Positions 4,940-40,800 of a stretch of DNA of 41,132 nucleotides are shown here, piece by piece. This stretch comes from Candidatus Woesearchaeota archaeon (GTDB taxonomy: Archaea > Nanobdellota > Nanobdellia > Pacearchaeales > GW2011-AR1): positions 1 to 41,132 of the forward strand of contig CAZUQL010000001.1 in assembly GCA_964622565.1 (NCBI GenBank), given 5' to 3'. Each line of letters opens with the position of its first letter. The first letter of the stretch is position 1. Both the position numbers and the translations under genes were made by a program. The notes beneath the pieces are model-generated. The model worked only from the letters and a program-made list of their open reading frames with translations. It did not search any database and had not been told where the DNA came from.

Positions 4940-6099
4940 AAACAAAATTTATTTTTCCAAATTACACAGGGGGAGGTTTGATAAATTTAATGGCTTCTAT
5001 TGAGAATTGTTTCGGGGGTAAATCAAAATATAATGAATTAAGATTACTAAAATCAAAAGAAATTAAATCTAAGAATGTCGTATTAATTATCTTTGATGGA
5101 ATGGGGTATGAATTTTTTAGAAAATACTTAATGAAATCTTCATTAGCGCCATACCTAAAAGGAAATATTACTTCTGTTTTACCTGCTGGCACAACATCTG
5201 CAATATCTACTGTTTATACCGGAATGTTGCCCATCGAAACAGGAATGGTGGGATGGTACACTTTCTTAAGGGGGTTAGGGGTTATTAGTGTGGGTATACC
5301 TTATCAAGCAAGATTCTCAAAAGAAAGCTTAGGGGAATACTCTGATATAAATGATGTTTACTCTATCAAACCCCTCTCTAATAGAATTAAGAGAGATTCG
5401 TATACTATTATGCCAAAAGATCTCAAAAAAAGTTCTTTCAATAATTCGTCTACTGGAAAATCAACCCCCCTTTATTATAAAAGTCATTCTGAAATGTTTA
5501 AGAAAATTTTAAAAAAGGTAAGAAAGTCAAATAAAAAATATATCTATGCTTACTCTCCATACCCCGATAAATTTCTTCATGGTCATGGAGAAGGAGAAAA
5601 AGTTTTAGATGAAATGAAAAAGATAGAAAAAGCATTTTCAAAATTTTTAAAGAAAATAAAAAATACAGATACAACAATCATCGTAACTGCAGACCACGGA
5701 CTTAAGAGAGTTAAAAAGAGATTAATTAAAGAAGAACACCCTGAATTAGACGATTGTTTAACAATGCCCATCTGTGGAGAAAGTGGATTAGGATATTGTT
5801 ATGTTAAATCGGGAAAAGAAAAAAAATTTGAGAAAATAATTAAAACAAAATTTAAGAATTATTGTGATATTTTTAAATCAGAAGACTTTGTAAAAAAAGG
5901 ATATTTTGGAAAAGCAAAAGAGCATGGAGAATTTAGGAACCGAATTGGAGATTATGTACTAGTGTTTAAAGAAAATCATGGAAATGGAAGTAAATTAATT
6001 AATTCTTCAACTACTAAAAATATATTTAGCCATGGGGGAATGACTAAAGAAGAAATGCTTGTTCCACTCATTGTAATAAAACCAGGAGATTTAAAATGA
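4936..6099 (+). CDS. Alkaline-phosphatase superfamily protein (type I phosphodiesterase/nucleotide pyrophosphatase-like)
   Basis: VVLIIFDGMGYEFF metal site, nucleophile region PAGTTSAISTVYTGMLP, TADHGL, and SHGGMTKEEMLVPLIV. Start set at 4936 (ATGA overlap). Confidence 0.7.
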   Translation: MKTKFIFPNYTGGGLINLMASIENCFGGKSKYNELRLLKSKEIKSKNVVLIIFDGMGYEFFRKYLMKSSLAPYLKGNITSVLPAGTTSAISTVYTGMLPIETGMVGWYTFLRGLGVISVGIPYQARFSKESLGEYSDINDVYSIKPLSNRIKRDSYTIMPKDLKKSSFNNSSTGKSTPLYYKSHSEMFKKILKKVRKSNKKYIYAYSPYPDKFLHGHGEGEKVLDEMKKIEKAFSKFLKKIKNTDTTIIVTADHGLKRVKKRLIKEEHPELDDCLTMPICGESGLGYCYVKSGKEKKFEKIIKTKFKNYCDIFKSEDFVKKGYFGKAKEHGEFRNRIGDYVLVFKENHGNGSKLINSSTTKNIFSHGGMTKEEMLVPLIVIKPGDLK

Positions 6100-6878
6100 C
6101 TCCCAAAAACTTAAACACAACAACAACCCCAACGTGGTGTCCAGGATGTTTTAATTTTCAGATACTTGCAGGTATGAAAAATGTTTTAAAGGATTTGAAA
6201 GGTGAGACTGCAATTGTAACTGGAATTGGCTGTCATGCTAAAATGTTTGATTATATTAATTTGCCGGGAATTAATTCACTTCATGGAAGAGTTCCGCCTA
6301 CTTGCTTAGGTTTGAAGATTGCAAATCCTAAATTAAATGTGTTTGGTTTTTCAGGAGACGGAGATGCTTATGCAGAGGGTTTTGCACACACGCTTCACGC
6401 AGCACGTTATAATTCTAATTTTAAATATTTTGTTCAGAATAATCAAGTTTTTGCGTTAACTGTTGGACAACCGACGCCAGTTTCAGAAAAGGGATATTCA
6501 GATAAAACAATGCCGTTGGGGGTGAAGACTCTTCCGATGAATCCGATTAAACTTATGTTGGCGGCGGGGGCGAGTTTTGTTGCGCGTGTTTTTGCTGATG
6601 TAAAACAAATTGAAGAGATAACTAAAGAAGCGATGAAGCATAAGGGGTTTGCGTTTATAGAAATTTTACAACCGTGTATAATCTTTCATGCAGACAAGGG
6701 TTACAAAGAAAAAACTTATAACTTACAAAACGCAGGACATGACAAAACAAATTTAAGAGGGGCAATGGAACGAGCAGAGGAGTTTGATTATAATTTGATT
6801 AATGAAAAAACAAAGATTCCTCTTGGAATATTTTATCAAAAAGAGCGCGAGATTTTTGAGGATGAGATTCGGAAATAG
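6096..6878 (+). CDS. 2-oxoacid:ferredoxin oxidoreductase beta (TPP-binding) subunit
   Basis: WCPGCFNFQI cluster-binding start, GIGCH, and the TPP motif GDGDAYAEG...N. ATGA overlap with the upstream gene. Confidence 0.85.
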   Translation: MTPKNLNTTTTPTWCPGCFNFQILAGMKNVLKDLKGETAIVTGIGCHAKMFDYINLPGINSLHGRVPPTCLGLKIANPKLNVFGFSGDGDAYAEGFAHTLHAARYNSNFKYFVQNNQVFALTVGQPTPVSEKGYSDKTMPLGVKTLPMNPIKLMLAAGASFVARVFADVKQIEEITKEAMKHKGFAFIEILQPCIIFHADKGYKEKTYNLQNAGHDKTNLRGAMERAEEFDYNLINEKTKIPLGIFYQKEREIFEDEIRK

Positions 6879-6879
6879 T

Positions 6880-7353
6880 TTAATATCCCAATACTAACTT
6901 TCTGGCGTTTCTTGATGCATAAGTCATGCTTTCATAAATTCTTGCTTTATAATTTATTCCTTCTCCGCTCCCAAAAGTAAATTGAAGATGTAGGGGGTTT
7001 GTCCCATGAATTGAGGTAAAAATATCTAAGAAAGAATTATCGCAATGAGTGAATGCACTTCTTCCTAAATCATTAAAATTTATTTTAACTATGCTTTTTC
7101 TATCTTTCTTCTGATCAATCTCTTCCCATCCATAAGAATGTACCATTAAACTATATCTTCTAACATTTAACTCTGACTCTTCATCTTCCGGATGCACCGC
7201 TTGAACAAATTGAGGAGATCCTTCTTTAAAATCTGCTAAATATGGAATAGCTAAAGGATTTTTTAATGCATGTTCTACAACCCCAAAAACATCATGGGGG
7301 GTTCCTTCATTGAGAATAACTCTTAAGTTATCCAGTTGAGTTCGAGTTAACAT
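6880..7353 (-). CDS. Hypothetical soluble protein (orphan)
   Basis: 157-aa ORF with no recognisable motif. A reverse-strand TATA-like TTTATTAA (7375-7382) is centred about 25 nt upstream of the ATG, so a leaderless transcript is plausible. Confidence 0.5.
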   Translation of the reverse strand: MLTRTQLDNLRVILNEGTPHDVFGVVEHALKNPLAIPYLADFKEGSPQFVQAVHPEDEESELNVRRYSLMVHSYGWEEIDQKKDRKSIVKINFNDLGRSAFTHCDNSFLDIFTSIHGTNPLHLQFTFGSGEGINYKARIYESMTYASRNARKLVLGY

Positions 7354-7469
7354 AATAAAAAAATTATTCCTTTCTTAATAAAGATTATTGTTCCAGAAGG
7401 GTTATTTCCCAAATACACAATCGCTCAAAGAAAATGTTTAAATAGGTTTTTACTCTCTTTTAATATTAA

Positions 7470-7874
7470 ATGGCAGGCAACCAAATAGATCCCAATAAAA
7501 GAATAATGGTGGTTGATGATTTTGAAAGATGGAGGTCTGTGGCAGGGGATAGTTTAGCAAGTTGGGGTTTTAGGGAGGTGAGATATTTTTATGATGTGTC
7601 CTCTGCCCTAGGGGATTATTCCAGATATCTTCCGCATTTAGCATTTTTAGATGTAAACTTCGATCCTTCAAATCCCGGACTTTCTGGAAATATGGATGGA
7701 TTATATTTATGCGAAAGGTTGAGAGAATTAGACAATCAATTAGTTATTGCTGTTATGAGCAGCATGTCCGAAGCTCAAGATTTAGCAATGCAAAAAGGCG
7801 CTAATGGATTCATATTGAAAAGGAATTTTGTTTCAGATTTTGATAAATTTATGGAAGAGTGCTCTAAAAGATGA
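7470..7874 (+). CDS. Stand-alone response-regulator receiver (CheY-like REC) domain
   Basis: RIMVVDDFE (acidic pocket), LAFLDVNF (phospho-acceptor Asp position), VMSSMS (conserved Ser/Thr) and GFILKR (conserved Lys). No output domain. TATA TTTAAATA at 7437-7444. Confidence 0.7.
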   Translation: MAGNQIDPNKRIMVVDDFERWRSVAGDSLASWGFREVRYFYDVSSALGDYSRYLPHLAFLDVNFDPSNPGLSGNMDGLYLCERLRELDNQLVIAVMSSMSEAQDLAMQKGANGFILKRNFVSDFDKFMEECSKR

Positions 7875-11686: not shown

Positions 11687-11905
11687 TTACTTACTCTTCT
11701 GGATTTTAACTCCAAGCTCCTCGAGTCGCTTTAAGTGACTTTGCATAATTGACTCTACAATTTGGAGCATTTTAATTAATTCGTTTCTTTCATTTACAAG
11801 TGTTGTTAAAGCTCCTTTATGATAACCCACTTCTTCAGCTTTAGAAATCTTTGGAGCCTCATTATTTGATTCGAGTGCCTTTTCAAGATCTGTTTTTTTG
11901 TTCAT
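11687..11905 (-). CDS. Small helical protein translationally coupled to trxB
   Basis: 72-aa ORF whose ATG overlaps the trxB stop as ATGA. Predicted coiled coil (LVNERNELIKMLQIVESIMQSHLKRLEELG). No family recognised. Confidence 0.45.
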   Translation of the reverse strand: MNKKTDLEKALESNNEAPKISKAEEVGYHKGALTTLVNERNELIKMLQIVESIMQSHLKRLEELGVKIQKSK

Positions 11906-12816
11906 CTTAATTTACTTACATAATCGTAAGCGTTTTTTGCAGCAATGGCTCCTTGTGACGAAGCAACTACAACTTGTTTTAGTTTTTGATTAGTGATATC
12001 TCCACAAGCCCAAACTCCTTCTAAAGAGGTCTCCATGTTTTCATTAACTCGAATATAATTTTCTTCTAATTCTAAATTTAAATTTTTAGTAAATTCAACT
12101 AACGGTGTGCTTCCTATTTCTACGAAAATTCCTTCGATAGCTATTTCTTTTTTGTTTCCTTTTTCATCGAGGACAAGTTTTTCAACTTTTTCTTTTCCTA
12201 AAATTTCTTTTGGAACCACATTATAATGGATTTCTACATTTTCCTTATTTTCAAGTCTTTTTGTGGTTATGTCTTCGCAACGAAGTTTTTCTCCTCGATA
12301 AAATATGTAAACTTTTTTTGCAATGTCTGAAAGAGCAAGAGCAGATGTTGCTGCACAGTCGCTTCCTCCAATAACTCCTGCTATTTTATCCTTGAAAAAA
12401 AACGCATCACAAGTAACACAATATGAAACCCCTTTTCCAGTAAATTCTTTCTCTCCTTTGATTCCTAATTTTTTTCTTTCTGTTCCTGTTGCAATGATTA
12501 ATGCTTTTGAAGAAATTTCGTCTTTGTTGGTTTTGACAATGAATTCATTTTTAATCTTTGAAACTGACTCTGCGTCCTTCATTAAAAACATTATATCTTT
12601 GTATTCTTTTAATTGATTGTAGAATTGCATCATTAGTTGTGTTCCTTTTCCAGAAAATCCTGGCCAGTTTTCTAACGATAGAATAGAATTTGCAGTTCCC
12701 CCGATGTCTTTGGATAGTATTGCTGTTTTCAAACCTGAACGCGCTGCGTAAAGTCCAGCTGTCAAACCAGCGGGCCCTGCTCCAATAATAATTAAATCAT
12801 ATGAATTTGAGTTCAT
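11902..12816 (-). CDS. trxB: Thioredoxin-disulfide reductase
   Basis: FAD motif YDLIIIGAGPAGLTAGLYAARSG, redox-active CVTC (SYCVTCDAFFF), an NAD(P)H Rossmann motif (GVIGGSDCAA), and C-terminal ACGD...Q.V.A...G..AA. Confidence 0.9.
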   Translation of the reverse strand: MNSNSYDLIIIGAGPAGLTAGLYAARSGLKTAILSKDIGGTANSILSLENWPGFSGKGTQLMMQFYNQLKEYKDIMFLMKDAESVSKIKNEFIVKTNKDEISSKALIIATGTERKKLGIKGEKEFTGKGVSYCVTCDAFFFKDKIAGVIGGSDCAATSALALSDIAKKVYIFYRGEKLRCEDITTKRLENKENVEIHYNVVPKEILGKEKVEKLVLDEKGNKKEIAIEGIFVEIGSTPLVEFTKNLNLELEENYIRVNENMETSLEGVWACGDITNQKLKQVVVASSQGAIAAKNAYDYVSKLR

Positions 12817-35472: not shown

Positions 35473-35910
35473 ATGGAATGTCCTTATTGTTCAAGCTCGA
35501 AATTCAAAGTAACAGATAAAAGAGAATCTCCAGAGGGCATAAGAAGACGAAGAGAATGTCTTAAGTGCAAAAAGAGGTTTACAACATATGAAAGAATAGA
35601 TAATCCAGATTTATACGTGTTGAAAAAAGATGGGAGACGGGAACGGTTTAATGTAGAAAAACTAAAACAAGGAATAGAAAAAGCATTTGAAAAGAGACCA
35701 ATTTCAACTGAAAAAATAGAAAAAATGGTAAAATCAATTGAAGAACACATTAGAAGAAAAAATAAAAAAGAAATGAAAAGTTCAATTATAGGAGAGTTGG
35801 TCATGAAAAAAATAAAAAAACTAGATAATATTGCATATATTCGATTTGCTTCAGTTTATAGAGACTTCAAGGATATAAAAGATTTTAAAAATGAGATACA
35901 AACACTATGA
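35473..35910 (+). CDS. nrdR: Transcriptional repressor NrdR (zinc ribbon + ATP-cone)
   Basis: MECPYCSSSKFKVTDKRESPEGIRRRRECLKCKKRFTTYERI is the NrdR zinc-ribbon signature. It is followed by an ATP-cone (VLKKDGRRERFNVEKLKQGIEKA...AYIRFASVYRDF). Confidence 0.9.
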   Translation: MECPYCSSSKFKVTDKRESPEGIRRRRECLKCKKRFTTYERIDNPDLYVLKKDGRRERFNVEKLKQGIEKAFEKRPISTEKIEKMVKSIEEHIRRKNKKEMKSSIIGELVMKKIKKLDNIAYIRFASVYRDFKDIKDFKNEIQTL

Positions 35911-38900
35911 ATATAAAATTTATTGAAAAAAGAGATGGGAAAATAGATCGATTTGACCCTGGAAGAATCAGAAAGGCGATTTCTAAAGCAGCTTCTGCAA
36001 TTGGAGAAAGTGAAGATTCAATCAATCAGATATTTTCTTCAACAATTGATCATTTAGAAAAAAAAGAAAAAGAGAGAATTGGAATTCGTGAAATTGAACA
36101 GGCAATTATCAAGGCAGCTAGGTTTAATGGTTATGAAAATCTTGCAGTAGCATATCAAAGTTATAAAGACAAACGTGAAGAAGCCAGAATGGTTTTGTCT
36201 ATTGCTGCAGAAAGTTTTGAAAAGAACACCACAGACAAAGCACTATTAATTGAATCAGATTCAAAAGAAATTTTAGAGCCTTGGAATAGAACTCGAATTG
36301 TTGCGCAACTTGAAAAAGAGGCGGGGCTTTCACAAGAGTTTGCAAAGGATATTTCAAAGGTTGTAGAGAATATTGTGGTAGATATGTATCAAAGAGGGGT
36401 TAGAAGATTTAGTACTAAAGATATTCGTTCTATTGTGGATATGGTTTTGAAACAAGAGGGGTTGGAACTCCAAGGATTAAAACAAGGCTTGTTAGGATTT
36501 TCATCTGCAGATTTTGAATCAATTGTAATCAACAGAAGTAAAGAAAATAGTAATGTATCTTCAAATAATCCCGAAGCTGTAAATCTTGAAACCGCAGAAA
36601 GAATTCAAAAACAATATGCCCTTGAAAAAATTTTTAGTCCAGATGTTACAGAAGCACACCTTAAAGGAAAAATTCACATACATGATTTAGGTTATCCAAC
36701 TCGGGCGTATTGTTCAAGCCACTCTTTAGAGTACATAAAAAAATATGGATTAAATAAGGTTCTTTCAAATCTGGAGTCAAAATCAAGTTCTCCAAACTCT
36801 GCAGCGGTTTTAAATCAGCATGTTCAAACTTTTTTAGCTTCATTGCAAGCACATTATGCAGGTGCTTTAGGATTTGGATTTTTGAATATTCTATATGCTC
36901 CCCTTTTAAAGAGACCTGTTGAAATTTTAGAAATTAATTTTAATGGTAAAACTGTTAAGATGGAAAAAAGAGATGTTGAAAAATTATTAGAACAAGGAAC
37001 AATAAAAAAAGACGAATTAGAGATTATTTCTACTAAAACTGAATTAAGGGAACTTCCACAGAGAGAAGTTTTGCAAATTGCACAGAATTTGATTTTTGCA
37101 GCTTCTCAAAATGCTTTTTCACGAGGAGGACAGACACTTTTTATTGATTTTAATATTCATACGGGAATTCCAAATTATTTGAAAAATGTTCCTGCAATTG
37201 GCCCAAGAGGGAAGTATATGGTTTTGAAAAAAGATGATTCTGTAGAATTAATTGATGAAGCTCCAAGATTTGAGAATAAGGAAGATTCAAATGACCCGAG
37301 AAATGGAGACGCTGATTCAACAAAAGTAGATGGAAAAATCGTGACTTATGGAGATTTAGAAGAAACAGCGCAAAGGTTTGCAATGGCGTTGTTAGAAGTT
37401 TGGAGAAGAGGAGACAAAAATGGAAGACCCTTTCATTTTCCAAAATGTGATTTGCATATAGATAAATATTCTCTTCAAGAAAAAACACAAAAAGAGGTTT
37501 TGGATTTTGCATTTAAAGTTACATCTGAAAACGGAAGTGTTTATTTTATGTTTGATAGAGGAGACGACGCTGTTTTAGCTCAGTGTTGTAGATTAAAAGA
37601 AAAAATTGAAGATAAAACGATGTTAAAATATCCAGAGAGACTAAGGTTTTGTGGATTCCAGAATGTTACAATTAATCTTGCACAGGCTTCCTATGTTGGA
37701 AAAGAGTTAAAAGGAACACTTGAAGAAATTGACAAATCCATGGAATTAGCCTTAAAGGCACATAATCAAAAAGCAAATTTTATGCAAAACCTTTTGGATT
37801 CTGATGGAAGTCCCATGAGAAGTTTAGGAAGGCCAAGTGACGACGGAAAACCATATATTGAATTAAAAAAGGCAACATATATTTTAGGAGTAATTGGATT
37901 GAATGAAGCTGTTGAGAACTTGACAGGGAATCAACTTCATGAAAGCGAAGCTGCGTATCGTTTAGGATTAAGAATAATTTCTCATATGTACAAACGAATT
38001 CAAGAATTTAAGAAAAAAACAGGTTTGAAATTTACATTAGAAGAGACTCCCGGAGAATCAACAACGCGAAGATTTGCTAAAGTTGATTTAAAGAGGTTTC
38101 CTGAAGCAAGAAAGATAATTAAGGGAAGTTCTGAAAGTCCTTATTATACCAACTCCATTCATTTTTCTCCTGATGCAGATGTGGGAATTGTTGATAGAAT
38201 TATTGGTCAAAGTAAATTTCATGAGTTAATTGAATCAGGGGCAATTGTGCATGCTTATGTTGGAGAAGAAAGACCAAATGCAGAGGCAATTGAACATATT
38301 GTAAAGCAGACATTAGAACAGACCAGATGTTCTCAGCTAGTCTTTTCTCCGACGTATACTGAATGTGATTTGTGTGGGGAAGTTATGCCAGGGAGTAAGG
38401 ATTTGTGTACTCAACAAACTTGTCAAAATAGTTCAGAAGAAACAAAATTAAAAGGAACACTTTTTACAGTTACACGAATTGTGGGATATTATAGTCGGGT
38501 TGCAAATTGGAATGATTCACAAAAGCAGATTTTTAAAGACAGAGAAAAAGTAGAAAAATATTACGCAGGAAAATCCGGGAGAAAGATGGATTGGTTATAT
38601 AGTCCAGGAGTGAATGGAAAATTAATTATAAAAGAATTTGGAAAGCATGGATGTCCTAATTGTAAAATTCTTGAAACAACAATTAAAAATAAAATTAAGG
38701 AATTGAAAATACAAGATCTAGTTGATTTTAAGATGTATTATCTTGATGAGCTAGATGAAAGAGTTTTAGCTGAAGCTGCATTGTATGATGTTCCGATGGA
38801 CTCTGTACCGACGCTGGTTATTGGAGGAAAGAAAAAGATTTGGAAAAAGACCACTGTGTATGCGTCGAATTGTCAATCTGGAGTTTGCAGTGTTGGAGGT

Positions 38901-38984
38901 TCAGGAGTAAAAGAAACTATTTTAATTACTCCAAATGAAATTGAATCAAATATTCTTGAGTTAATTAATGACTATCAAAAATGA
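35907..38984 (+). CDS. nrdD: Anaerobic (class III) ribonucleoside-triphosphate reductase with two N-terminal ATP-cones and a C-terminal thioredoxin-fold domain
   Basis: ATP-cone 1 (IEKRDGKIDRFDPGRIRKAI...), ATP-cone 2 (ILEPWNRTRIVAQLEKEAGL...STKDIRSIVDMVLKQEGL), and the NrdD core (HIHDLGY, RGGQTLFIDFN, AQCCRLKE). Then a Cys4 site (CDLCGE...CTQQTC), the glycyl-radical motif TRIVGYYSRVANWN (Gly codon at 38484-38486), and 165 more residues including GCPNCK (38649-38666) and SVPTLVIGG. Confidence 0.92.
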   Translation: MNIKFIEKRDGKIDRFDPGRIRKAISKAASAIGESEDSINQIFSSTIDHLEKKEKERIGIREIEQAIIKAARFNGYENLAVAYQSYKDKREEARMVLSIAAESFEKNTTDKALLIESDSKEILEPWNRTRIVAQLEKEAGLSQEFAKDISKVVENIVVDMYQRGVRRFSTKDIRSIVDMVLKQEGLELQGLKQGLLGFSSADFESIVINRSKENSNVSSNNPEAVNLETAERIQKQYALEKIFSPDVTEAHLKGKIHIHDLGYPTRAYCSSHSLEYIKKYGLNKVLSNLESKSSSPNSAAVLNQHVQTFLASLQAHYAGALGFGFLNILYAPLLKRPVEILEINFNGKTVKMEKRDVEKLLEQGTIKKDELEIISTKTELRELPQREVLQIAQNLIFAASQNAFSRGGQTLFIDFNIHTGIPNYLKNVPAIGPRGKYMVLKKDDSVELIDEAPRFENKEDSNDPRNGDADSTKVDGKIVTYGDLEETAQRFAMALLEVWRRGDKNGRPFHFPKCDLHIDKYSLQEKTQKEVLDFAFKVTSENGSVYFMFDRGDDAVLAQCCRLKEKIEDKTMLKYPERLRFCGFQNVTINLAQASYVGKELKGTLEEIDKSMELALKAHNQKANFMQNLLDSDGSPMRSLGRPSDDGKPYIELKKATYILGVIGLNEAVENLTGNQLHESEAAYRLGLRIISHMYKRIQEFKKKTGLKFTLEETPGESTTRRFAKVDLKRFPEARKIIKGSSESPYYTNSIHFSPDADVGIVDRIIGQSKFHELIESGAIVHAYVGEERPNAEAIEHIVKQTLEQTRCSQLVFSPTYTECDLCGEVMPGSKDLCTQQTCQNSSEETKLKGTLFTVTRIVGYYSRVANWNDSQKQIFKDREKVEKYYAGKSGRKMDWLYSPGVNGKLIIKEFGKHGCPNCKILETTIKNKIKELKIQDLVDFKMYYLDELDERVLAEAALYDVPMDSVPTLVIGGKKKIWKKTTVYASNCQSGVCSVGGSGVKETILITPNEIESNILELINDYQK

Positions 38985-39736
38985 AACTTTCAAGAGTCAT
39001 AGATGAAAGTAGTATAGACTACCCTGGAAAGTTTGGGCCGGTTGTATTTGTTTCAGGTTGTAATTTTAAGTGTGGATTTTGTCATAATCCGGATTTAATT
39101 AATTTTTCTAGTGAAGGCATTGATGTTGGAGAGTTTATTGAAGATTTAAAAAAAAGAGTTGAATCTGGATGGGTGAATGGAATCTGCATAACTGGAGGAG
39201 AGCCTACGCTGAACCTTGAGTTGTTGGATTTTTTAACAGATTTAAGAAAAATAAATATTAATATTAAACTAGATACAAATGGAAGCAATCCTACAGTTTT
39301 GGGAGAAATTCTTGAAAAAAATCTTGTAGATTATATTGCTCTTGATGTAAAATCAGATAAAGATAATTATGAAAAATTTACAGGAGTTAAAGGGGATTTA
39401 AACAAGATAGAGGAATCAATAAGATTAATTTCTGAATCTAAAATTGATTTTGAATTTAGAACAACTTTAGCTCTAGTTTTAGAAAAAGAAATCCGTTGGT
39501 TAAACAAAAAAGAAATAGGAAATATGATGAATTGGATTTTAAGTTTAGTTTCAGAAGAAAGAGAAAAAAAGATTAAGTGGAATATTCAAAAATTTTATTC
39601 TCGAAATAAGGGAGATATTTTATCAGAGAGATTTAGTAAGGAAAAACTTCCAAAAGAGTTTCATGAAACTCCCAAAGAAGAATTAGAAAAAGCAAAAAAG
39701 ATTCTTGGGAAGTATTTTAATTGTGAAATTGTTTAA
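38981..39736 (+). CDS. nrdG: Anaerobic ribonucleotide reductase activating protein (radical SAM)
   Basis: GCNFKCGFCHN CxxxCxxC cluster motif near the N-terminus, then GICITGGEPT. ATGA overlap with nrdD. About 70 extra Lys/Glu-rich C-terminal residues. Confidence 0.85.
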   Translation: MKLSRVIDESSIDYPGKFGPVVFVSGCNFKCGFCHNPDLINFSSEGIDVGEFIEDLKKRVESGWVNGICITGGEPTLNLELLDFLTDLRKININIKLDTNGSNPTVLGEILEKNLVDYIALDVKSDKDNYEKFTGVKGDLNKIEESIRLISESKIDFEFRTTLALVLEKEIRWLNKKEIGNMMNWILSLVSEEREKKIKWNIQKFYSRNKGDILSERFSKEKLPKEFHETPKEELEKAKKILGKYFNCEIV

Positions 39737-39744
39737 AGTTGAAA

Positions 39745-39981
39745 CTAAGGAGAGATTAGATTGGATGAGGAAAGGTTATACTCTCCAATCTGATGGAGAA
39801 TCTTTTCTCTTAATGAAAAGAGAAACCTCATTTTTCCACAAACTCTCCCTCGCTGTCCTTTTTTTGTGGTTAATTCCCCACAGAGAAATTCAACTCCTGG
39901 TGATTTAAAAAAATCCATTAGTGAATACATTTCTAATGTTGAAGAAGTTTCTATATTGAAGTCTAATGTTTTATATTCCAT
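39745..39981 (-). CDS. Hypothetical 78-aa protein (weak call)
   Basis: One of two mutually overlapping ORFs. The minus-strand one has TTTTTAAAAC (reverse strand, 40001-10) about 25 nt upstream of its ATG. No motif recognised. Confidence 0.3.
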   Translation of the reverse strand: MEYKTLDFNIETSSTLEMYSLMDFFKSPGVEFLCGELTTKKGQRGRVCGKMRFLFSLREKILHQIGEYNLSSSNLISP

Positions 39982-40061
39982 TTCTGTTTTAGATTATAAT
40001 GTTTTAAAAAATTATTGTAGAAAATAACAATACTTAAAAACAGGGAAATCATTTTATTAAA

Positions 40062-40493
40062 ATGGTGGAGATTAAATTTAAGAAGTTGGATTTTGGCGCG
40101 AAGGTTCCGGTCTATGCTACTGAGGGTGATGCAGGAATGGATCTCTTTTCAAATGAAGAGTTAATTCTAAAACCTGGAGAGAGAGTCTTAGTTTCAACGG
40201 GGATATCTTCGGAATTTCCAATGGGATATGTTGCTTTAATCTGGGATAAGTCGGGGCTTGCAGTAAAGAAAGGAATTAAAACTATGGCAGGGGTGATTGA
40301 TTGTGGATATAGGGGAGAATGGAAAATTGCGTTGTATAATACCTCTAATGAGGATTTCAAGATTGAGAAAGGGGATAAGATTGCACAAGCATTGATTCAA
40401 CCAATTGAACATGCAAGCATAAAAGAAGTATCTGAAGATCTTTCTGAAAGTGAGAGGGGGGAAGGGGGATTTGGAAGCACAGGAATAAAGTAA
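40062..40493 (+). CDS. dut: dUTP diphosphatase (trimeric dUTPase)
   Basis: Motifs ATEGDAGMDL, GLAVKKGI, GVIDCGYRGEW, IAQ, and the C-terminal RGEGGFGSTG. TATA-like TACTTAAAAA at 40031-40040. Confidence 0.9.
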   Translation: MVEIKFKKLDFGAKVPVYATEGDAGMDLFSNEELILKPGERVLVSTGISSEFPMGYVALIWDKSGLAVKKGIKTMAGVIDCGYRGEWKIALYNTSNEDFKIEKGDKIAQALIQPIEHASIKEVSEDLSESERGEGGFGSTGIK

Positions 40494-40524: not shown

Positions 40525-40800
40525 ATGAAATCACTTAAACCAAGTATGCGAGAAAAGAAAAGATATCTTCTAGTTGGAGGAAAGAACATTAAAAAAAATA
40601 TTCTCCTTGCTGTGAAAGAGTTTATTGGAGTTTTGGGAATGGCAGATGCAAATTTGCAGTTTGTTAAAACAACATCGAATTCTGCAATTATTTCTATAAA
40701 TAGAAAAAGCGTGGACAAAATTAAAGCGGGGCTTTGTGTCTGGTCTGAAAAAATTGAAGTTTTGAAAGTTTCAGGAACTTTGAAAGGGTTGGGAAAATAA
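40525..40800 (+). CDS. rnp2: RNase P protein component 2 (Pop5/Rpp14 family), short form
   Basis: LKPSMREKKRYLLV and VLKVSGTLKGLGK match the N- and C-terminal signatures of archaeal Pop5 (LPPTLRDKKRYI..., VLGVSGTIKRLKRK in Pyrococcus, from memory). Lies immediately upstream of psmA, as in the archaeal exosome/proteasome superoperon. Confidence 0.75.
   Translation: MKSLKPSMREKKRYLLVGGKNIKKNILLAVKEFIGVLGMADANLQFVKTTSNSAIISINRKSVDKIKAGLCVWSEKIEVLKVSGTLKGLGK

Follow-up and report, generated by a model that had tools for sequence, protein, structure and literature searches.

A class III ribonucleotide reductase of DPANN archaea and Elusimicrobia carries a C-terminal thioredoxin-fold domain that may serve as its dedicated reductant

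A class III ribonucleotide reductase (RNR) in which the NrdD polypeptide continues past its glycyl-radical domain into a thioredoxin-fold domain was identified on contig CAZUQL010000001.1 of a Candidatus Woesearchaeota archaeon (GenBank assembly GCA_964622565.1, positions 1 to 41,132; this whole stretch of 41,132 nucleotides is referred to as the window). The fused domain probably acts as a dedicated, covalently attached disulfide reductant of NrdD. The gene and the features of its 3' portion that bear on this proposal are as follows.

35907..38984, + strand: nrdD::trx, encoding a class III RNR of 1025 amino acids with a C-terminal thioredoxin-fold domain; a single unbroken open reading frame (ORF)
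38364..38423, + strand: Zn-ribbon cysteines C820, C823, C834 and C839 of the glycyl-radical domain, aligned with the ribbon cysteines of the P. copri and Thermotoga maritima enzymes
38484..38486, + strand: G860, the glycyl-radical site in TRIVGYYS, aligned to 'RITGY'/'RIVGY' of solved NrdDs
38547..38621, + strand: conserved linker, residues 881 to 905, with an invariant Y886 and near-invariant A887 and W896
38622..38981, + strand: thioredoxin-fold domain, residues 906 to 1024, from AlphaFold2, Foldseek and PDB profile matches
38652..38663, + strand: C916-P-N-C919 redox motif at the β1/α1 junction (codons 38652-38654 for C916 and 38661-38663 for C919); the Cys pair is invariant in alignments A1 to A4
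38808..38810, + strand: P968, at the cis-proline position of the thioredoxin fold, directly before β3; Pro in 109/109 sequences

Membership of the protein in the NrdD family was indicated by the Pfam model NRDD (398.7 bits over residues 213 to 881; cutoff, 26.2 bits) and by TIGR02487 (362.1 bits; cutoff, 326.35 bits). As both models ended at residue 881, approximately 140 residues lie beyond the canonical NrdD. An earlier, sequence-only reading of this stretch had proposed that the enzyme was extended past the radical glycine, and this was confirmed: 165 residues follow G860 in one frame, compared to about 25 to 32 in characterized NrdDs, and in the solved NrdDs of the alignment the chain stops shortly past the equivalent WN-x-G/S-K/Q helix. 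The C-terminal string KLIIKEFGKHGCPNCKILETT...VPMDSVPTLVIGGKK was found exactly as quoted in that reading, and the segment to which it had assigned the extra domain, 38574-38984, corresponds to residues 890 to 1025. Residues V859-G860-Y861 and the ribbon cysteines C820, C823 and C834 were invariant in full-length alignments.

Homologs of the full-length protein were then surveyed. The search detected approximately 70 archaeal homologs of 1020 to 1060 amino acids, with 55 to 68% identity at ~100% coverage, which belonged, where named, to the Pacearchaeota or Nanoarchaeia, and a large Elusimicrobia group of ~1006 amino acids with 46 to 47% identity at 95% coverage. The extension was present in 108/108 of the full-length homologs found, and the CxxC motif lay ~56 residues past the radical glycine in every archaeal homolog with a located glycyl motif. 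A locus search of species-representative genomes, with the full-length alignment as the query, detected more than 593 relatives. The best 80 of these were inspected, and the fused form was present in Pacearchaeota, Woesearchaeota, Nanoarchaeia/Nanoarchaeota and Elusimicrobia. Overall, these searches indicated that the fusion is common to DPANN archaea and Elusimicrobia, with more than 100 homologs. One 2.8-kb contig labelled Candidatus Dojkabacteria (L015; JAFCCB010000060.1) carried an archaeal-type fused nrdD with 63% identity to the query, which is probably a binning error. Two other fused homologs (P0041, 1176 amino acids, and P0064, 1173 amino acids) were ~150 residues longer, and their best alignment segment covered 63 to 70% of the query, which suggests a large insertion in the core, possibly an intein.

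The prediction that the C-terminal segment adopts a thioredoxin fold was borne out by structural modeling and profile searches. An AlphaFold2 model of the tail, built with a 60-sequence tail alignment (A1), had a predicted local distance difference test (pLDDT) value of 88 and a predicted template modeling score (pTM) of 0.81, with a β-α-β-α-β-β-α topology (β1, residues 906 to 912; α1, 917 to 932; β2, 939 to 945; α2, 951 to 959; β3, 969 to 973; β4, 978 to 982; α3, 1009 to 1024); the corresponding values for the full-length model were 86 and 0.81. In comparisons of the model with the PDB by Foldseek, the top 50 matches were all thioredoxin-fold proteins, and nearly all were thioredoxins (probability, 1.0; target TM-score, ≤0.70). 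A search of the PDB with the A1 profile detected DsbA, PDI-like proteins, the MJ0307 thioredoxin, PDO and MtH895; one weak match among those listed was not a thioredoxin-fold protein. Individual members of A1 matched Thioredoxin_2 (33/60; best E value, 1.8e-8), Glrx-like (24 members) and Glutaredoxin (20 members). The CxxC motif and P968 occupied canonical thioredoxin-fold positions in the predicted structure. Y886, C916, C919 and P968 were invariant in A1, and the last three were invariant across DPANN archaea and Elusimicrobia despite a tail identity of just 17 to 58%.

The linker that joins the two parts of the protein was conserved in fused sequences and had no counterpart in unfused genes. 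Its pLDDT values rose from 58 to 69 when the tail was modeled alone to 87 to 89 in the full-length model, which suggests that the linker packs on the NrdD core. The conservation of the linker and the higher pLDDT values in the full-length context support a defined geometry of the predicted assembly.

The covalent relay between NrdD and a redoxin envisaged in the sequence-only reading received strong support from unfused relatives. Tail-less nrdD genes encoding proteins of ~800 to 820 amino acids, with 41 to 47% identity and with ends 28 to 46 residues past the glycine, were found in Omnitrophota, Planctomycetia/Brocadiaceae, Desantisbacteria, one Aenigmatarchaeota and two Woesearchaeota. For 16/17 of these relatives, an ORF of ~85 to 100 amino acids located 13 to 260 nt downstream of nrdD matched the hidden Markov model (HMM) of the tail (E values, 3e-14 to 1e-4). 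These free redoxins share the (F/Y)GKxxCxxC motif and the cis-Pro position with the fused tail, and the unfused gene order, nrdR-nrdD-redoxin-nrdG, is equal to the fused order, nrdR-nrdD::redoxin-nrdG(-dut). There is, hence, a gene-fusion (Rosetta-stone) link between nrdD and the redoxin. Since a homologous free gene sits between nrdD and nrdG in these relatives, the query tail is the fused counterpart of a redoxin of the nrd operon, of the Thioredoxin_3 or MTH895-MJ0307 kind.

Family assignments of the free and fused forms differed in strength. Four of seven free redoxins passed PF13192 over the whole model (29 to 42 bits), and the nearest NCBIfam models were TIGR00412 (MTH895/ArsE) and TIGR00411 (MJ0307). 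A profile of free redoxins and fused thioredoxin cores matched at least 566 proteins; the best 120 of these were ~90 amino acids in length, where named mostly a 'thioredoxin family protein', and most carried PF13192, and no methanogen protein was present among them. The likeness of the domain to Thioredoxin_3 or 'redox-active disulfide protein 2' proteins, as suggested in the earlier reading, thus stood at the family level, where free orthologs pass PF13192, but not for the query domain itself, which scored 16.5 to 16.9 bits with Thioredoxin_3 (PF13192; cutoff, 24.8 bits), 19.7 bits with TIGR00412 (cutoff, 62 bits) and, as a single sequence, 20.5 bits with Thioredoxin_2 (cutoff, 27 bits). When the tail by itself was used in a word-index search, nothing was retrieved except a fragment of the query, and an exhaustive phmmer search of 1.84 billion representatives yielded 11 matches, most of which were NrdD fragments. 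With just 11 matches, a single-sequence search cannot tie the tail to ordinary thioredoxins. Membership in the NrdH family was considered and rejected, as the NrdH model TIGR02194 gave no match to the query tail and only 14 to 16 bits with the free orthologs (cutoff, 85.75 bits). The domain may nevertheless act like NrdH as a redoxin dedicated to RNR.

A third arrangement was observed in relatives in which nrdD is naturally split within the Zn-ribbon (L006, 1194-4361, and L007, 1195-4362; relatives P0069, P0070 and P0071, and also P0123). The first part encodes an 858-residue core ending in '...KLCTN' at a TAA stop codon, which is followed by a second in-frame TAA. A GGAGGTG ribosome-binding site comes next, and then the ATG of the second part, a 189-residue ORF that encodes the fourth ribbon cysteine, the loop with the radical glycine and the thioredoxin domain. 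The identical arrangement was present in two samples. In this respect the separate radical module is similar to GrcA/YfiD and other autonomous glycyl-radical modules. Two of the 858-residue relatives, P0069 and P0071, were examined as candidate tail-less enzymes and were rejected, as they are split genes with the tail on the second part.

The residues that distinguish the NrdD types were located in the catalytic core as follows.

36708..36713, + strand: Y268-C269, the predicted βA reducing cysteine, from profile alignment to 4coi and 1h78 (T. maritima Y124-C125; phage T4 C79)
37581..37592, + strand: finger loop Q559-C560-C561-R562 (QCCR), with a double Cys and no Met; invariant
38040..38042, + strand: E712, candidate active-site glutamate, from profile alignment to the Glu of T. 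maritima 'NIEQVPAE', residue 495 by count

The Glu of 'NIEQVPAE' is taken here as the putative equivalent of Glu438 of the Neisseria bacilliformis enzyme. Glu438 is the active-site glutamate of the latter enzyme (PMC4390871). The reference numbering for the T. maritima (C125; 328-SCCR-331) and T4 (C79; 288-MGCR-291) enzymes was taken from PMC4493059. The QCCR loop was equated with these SCCR and MGCR loops by motif, as the site lies outside the reported alignment blocks. Y268-C269, Q559-R562 and E712-E713 were invariant over the 69 sequences of the full-length alignment, and the Q559 before CCR was also invariant in 80 loci.

Formate-dependent NrdD1 enzymes have an M(G/C)CR finger loop and use a Met-Cys thiosulfuranyl radical (PMC9669993); no such Met-start loop was present in the query, and in the formate-dependent enzymes of the alignment (T4, P. 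copri and 9d3x) the residue in the place of E712 is Y or L. Enzymes with the Glu and without the Met have been described as 'likely to solely utilize thioredoxin' (PMC9669993; PMC4493059). The βA cysteine and the extra finger-loop cysteine of NrdD2 were represented by C269, C560 and C561, and its Glu, by alignment, was represented by E712. NrdD3 enzymes have a QCCR/A loop and neither Met nor Glu (PMC9669993); the query resembles these in having QCCR and no Met, yet E712 is present and invariant. With C269, a CC pair without Met and E712, the clade therefore fits the definition of the NrdD2 type, so that the core appears to have a thiol-dependent rather than a formate-dependent signature, though with the loop ascribed to NrdD3. 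This determination of the NrdD subtype, which had been suggested as a check in the sequence-only reading, supported the redoxin relay proposed there. The QCCR loop region (residues 551 to 570; 37557-37616) had pLDDT values of 58 to 63 and was among the few low-confidence regions of the core, which echoes a published ambiguity on the location of the double-Cys finger loop.

These observations are consistent with a mechanism in which turnover would join C269 and one cysteine of the QCCR loop in a disulfide, E712 being the presumed proton-handling carboxylate. The tethered C916/C919 dithiol would then re-reduce this active-site disulfide without an intermediate carrier or, where the query and most archaeal homologs are concerned, possibly by way of a flexible loop containing C989 and C994. 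Electrons would thus flow from the redoxin to the core, in cis or in trans within the dimer, and an external disulfide reductase, for which the cassette has no gene, would recharge the redoxin; candidates would be a flavoenzyme resembling thioredoxin reductase or a ferredoxin-dependent reductase. A functional precedent is provided by Facklamia ignava, in which the glutaredoxin (Grx) domain of a Grx::ATP-cone::NrdB fusion protein was shown to serve as the RNR reductant (PMC6187632).

Several observations weigh against this proposal. The query domain falls under every curated family threshold. The dipeptide of the CxxC motif is highly variable (PN, PY, PT, GM, AM, SM, GT and others), so that the redox potential is not obviously tuned. 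The assignment of E712 depends on a profile alignment and on the presumed equivalence of one numbered residue, and QCCR is the published finger-loop motif of NrdD3, an enzyme type with a less well understood chemistry (PMC9669993). No reductase was consistently present near the gene, with a TrxB-like gene in 2/87 related loci and a FeThRed_B gene in 1/87 (L006). Where nrdD is split, the redoxin is encoded together with the glycyl-radical module and not with the barrel, an arrangement which would also fit a role in maintenance of the radical domain.

This last observation leads to the alternative that the redoxin serves the glycyl-radical domain itself by keeping the cysteines of the Zn-ribbon and radical domain reduced for activation by NrdG or for domain repair. 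Thioredoxin activates the Escherichia coli NrdD (Padovani 2001, as cited in PMC4390871), the redoxin is attached directly to the glycyl-radical domain, and the split genes of L006 and L007 retain it on a 189-residue chain together with the last ribbon cysteine and the radical loop. This role would, however, leave unexplained both the CC and Glu signature without Met of the whole clade, fused or unfused, and the need in obligate anaerobes for a redoxin dedicated solely to activation. As the sole function of the domain it was considered unlikely, but the two roles are compatible and not mutually exclusive.

A second alternative was that the domain senses redox state or oxygen, or has a purely structural or oligomerization role, and that electrons are supplied by formate or by a free thioredoxin. 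The presence of free classical thioredoxins near the cassette in four loci (L005, L006, L008 and L018) and the variable CxxC dipeptide would both be accommodated by such a function. It is difficult to reconcile with a finger loop lacking the Met that the literature ties to formate chemistry or with a free ortholog that is the operon partner of nrdD, and the absolute conservation of both cysteines and of the Pro at the cis-Pro position argues for thiol-disulfide chemistry; this explanation was judged to be unlikely. Finally, an assembly or sequencing error that erased the stop codon of nrdD and so joined it to a distinct redoxin gene, an error made conceivable by the existence of separate genes in sister lineages and raised in the sequence-only reading as a misjoined stop, was excluded because the same continuous frame occurs in more than 100 independent assemblies from differing samples, phyla and sequencing centers and contains a conserved linker of ~25 residues without a counterpart in unfused genes.

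One candidate reductase was present in the window.

11902..12816, - strand: homolog of low-Mr thioredoxin reductase (TrxB); TIGR01292, 315 bits (cutoff, 343 bits)

The sequence-only reading had proposed that this gene product recharges the domain. A homolog is indeed present, with 4zn0 as its best PDB match and a retained CxxC (CVTC), but it scores below the cutoff and is encoded 23 kb from nrdD on the opposite strand. Furthermore, it has GGSDCA...YRGEKLR in place of the GGGNSA...HRRDHLK of the NADPH-dependent thioredoxin reductase of Methanosarcina mazei. The HRR motif binds the 2'-phosphate of NADPH. With HRR replaced by YRG, the cofactor is uncertain and, as judged from these residues, may not be NADPH. 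The lack of linkage, the subthreshold score and the YRG sequence make a TrxB/NADPH drive just one option for the recharging of the domain.

No stand-alone thioredoxin or FeThRed_B homolog was found in the window. An ORF with a 'WCPGC' sequence (6048-6875) was examined as a candidate thioredoxin and was rejected, as it encodes the beta subunit of pyruvate:ferredoxin oxidoreductase (PFOR), in which this motif mimics a thioredoxin site. The presence of this subunit makes reduced ferredoxin a plausible source of electrons. The split-gene relative L006 has a classical thioredoxin (WCINC; 5203-5535) directly after nrdG and, within 2.5 kb, a 91-residue FeThRed_B homolog (CPC...CPC...HCKC; 7090-7365, - strand) and a 60-residue ferredoxin (7428-7610). 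By analogy, this set would be a ferredoxin-to-disulfide chain like that of Methanosarcina barkeri.

The second cysteine pair of the tail was considered as an additional carrier.

38871..38888, + strand: C989-QSGV-C994 (CQSGVC), a flexible insertion between β4 and α3, from the AlphaFold2 model and the sequence

This pair had been assigned in the sequence-only reading to a Cys-containing tail of ~45 residues after the fold; it was located instead in the loop between β4 and the last helix, α3 (residues 1009 to 1024). Residues 988 to 1001 had pLDDT values of <50 in the full-length model. A Cys pair was present in this loop in 64/166 fused sequences, 59 of which had Cx4C spacing, and the bearers were all archaeal, with the exception of one Elusimicrobia sequence and its GTDB locus, where the pair lies in a long C-terminal extension. 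The loop consensus, C-E(49%)-[DNS]-G(80%)-[VA](73%)-C, is nearly identical to the end of E. coli K-12 NrdA (...DDGCESGACKI), which contains the shuttle pair of this class Ia enzyme. Class III RNRs are said to have no such shuttle pair (PMC4390871). We tentatively suggest, as a possibility of doubtful standing, that C989/C994 could act as a mobile shuttle of the class I/II type, in which electrons would pass from C916/C919 to C989/C994 and on to C269-C560/561 within one polypeptide. As Cx4C is missing from Elusimicrobia and some archaeal homologs, it is not essential to the mechanism of the family. If such a relay is present, the enzyme would be the first of class III to have an 'external' shuttle disulfide, and its likeness to the CESGAC sequence of E. 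coli would reflect either convergence or a common origin.

The fused enzyme was compared with known systems. Like the NrdD2 enzymes of N. bacilliformis and T. maritima, it has a βA cysteine, an xCCR loop without Met and a Glu, and a protein dithiol would be the expected reductant. Unlike them, it has QCCR in place of SCCR and does not end ~30 residues past the radical glycine, and those enzymes use a free thioredoxin; similarity of the T. maritima NrdD to the family profile was low (E value, 5e-10). The NrdD3 of M. barkeri is served by an operon-encoded NrdH-like redoxin and a ferredoxin:disulfide reductase (PMC9669993; PMC9176816). A small thioredoxin-like protein dedicated to NrdD in the nrd operon and a QCCR-type loop are common to both systems, whereas in the present enzyme E712 is present, the redoxin is fused and FeThRed_B is absent from the window and from 86/87 related loci.

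Redoxins covalently joined to an RNR component have also been reported in the F. ignava protein and in a single N-terminal Grx::NrdD in RefSeq, from Lachnospiraceae bacterium TWA4 (PMC6187632). In both of those proteins a canonical glutaredoxin (PF00462) is placed at the N terminus, of a class I radical subunit in one and of a single NrdDd protein in the other, in contrast to a C-terminal domain of the Thioredoxin_3 type that follows the glycyl-radical domain in a large clade across two domains of life. The C-E-x-G-[AV]-C sequence that the query and most archaeal homologs have on a predicted flexible segment near the C terminus is shared with the C-terminal shuttle of class I/II enzymes such as E. 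coli NrdA, but here the loop lies within a folded redoxin and not on a free tail. The domain also resembles MTH895 (TIGR00412, 1ilo), MJ0307 (TIGR00411, 1fo5) and Thioredoxin_3 proteins, which matched it best at the level of families, in its size, in its minimal four-stranded fold and in a CxxC without WCGPC. It differs from these proteins by the additional conserved linker of the fused form and, in the query and most archaeal homologs, by the Cys-pair loop.

Literature searches found no published fusion of a C-terminal thioredoxin-fold domain to NrdD, in agreement with the view in the earlier reading that no NrdD-redoxin fusion had been characterized, and a survey of RNR extensions gives class III C termini only as the glycyl-radical domain (PMC9669993). 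The fused homologs are annotated simply as NrdD in databases, so that ~100 or more NrdD entries hold an unannotated redox domain. The fusion is apparently undescribed, yet it is a predictable extension of known partnerships between redoxins and RNRs. Its interest lies in the route by which electrons enter the buried class III active site, which is plugged by the glycyl-radical domain; this route is unsettled, and there is no agreement even on where the CC motif of the T. maritima enzyme lies. A tethered reductant fixes both the stoichiometry and the proximity of donor and acceptor, and a single-polypeptide system is suited to mixed-disulfide trapping and cryo-electron microscopy. Natural comparisons are built in, since the redoxin occurs fused, on a split gene or as a free protein, and the Cx4C loop is present in some forms and absent from others.

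The genes surrounding nrdD::trx and the N-terminal domain of its product are as follows.

35473..35910, + strand: nrdR, Zn-ribbon and ATP-cone repressor; Pfam Zn_ribbon_NrdR, 3.9e-16, and ATP-cone, 1.3e-22
35919..36182, + strand: N-terminal ATP-cone of NrdD, residues 5 to 92; Pfam
38981..39736, + strand: nrdG, radical S-adenosylmethionine activase of the NrdG2 type; TIGR02495, 174 bits (cutoff, 131 bits)
40062..40493, + strand: dut (dUTPase), the fourth gene of the cassette; Pfam dUTPase, 8e-33

The 3' end of nrdR overlaps the start of nrdD by 4 nt, and the start of nrdG overlaps the nrdD stop codon (ATGA). A second ATP-cone stretch was detected by Pfam in the N-terminal region of NrdD (residues 1 to 210; 35907-36540), and residues 100 to 125 and 190 to 195, between and after the ATP-cone stretches, were poorly modeled.

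Among the 87 related loci, nrdR was upstream of nrdD in 82 and dut followed nrdG in 52. The order nrdR-nrdD::trx-nrdG-dut (35473-40493 in the window) was the same in DPANN archaea and Elusimicrobia (L001 to L005 and L008 to L067), with an NrdD identity of 46 to 48%. NrdR is a bacterial-type regulator. Since the shared cassette includes this regulator, its distribution suggests that the cassette as a unit was transferred between domains, and sharing of the cassette between Elusimicrobia and DPANN archaea bears on the supply of deoxynucleoside triphosphates in genome-reduced symbionts. An Rpp14/Pop5 subunit of RNase P is encoded at 40525-40800 and, together with the PFOR beta subunit at 6048-6875, fits an anaerobic archaeal host.

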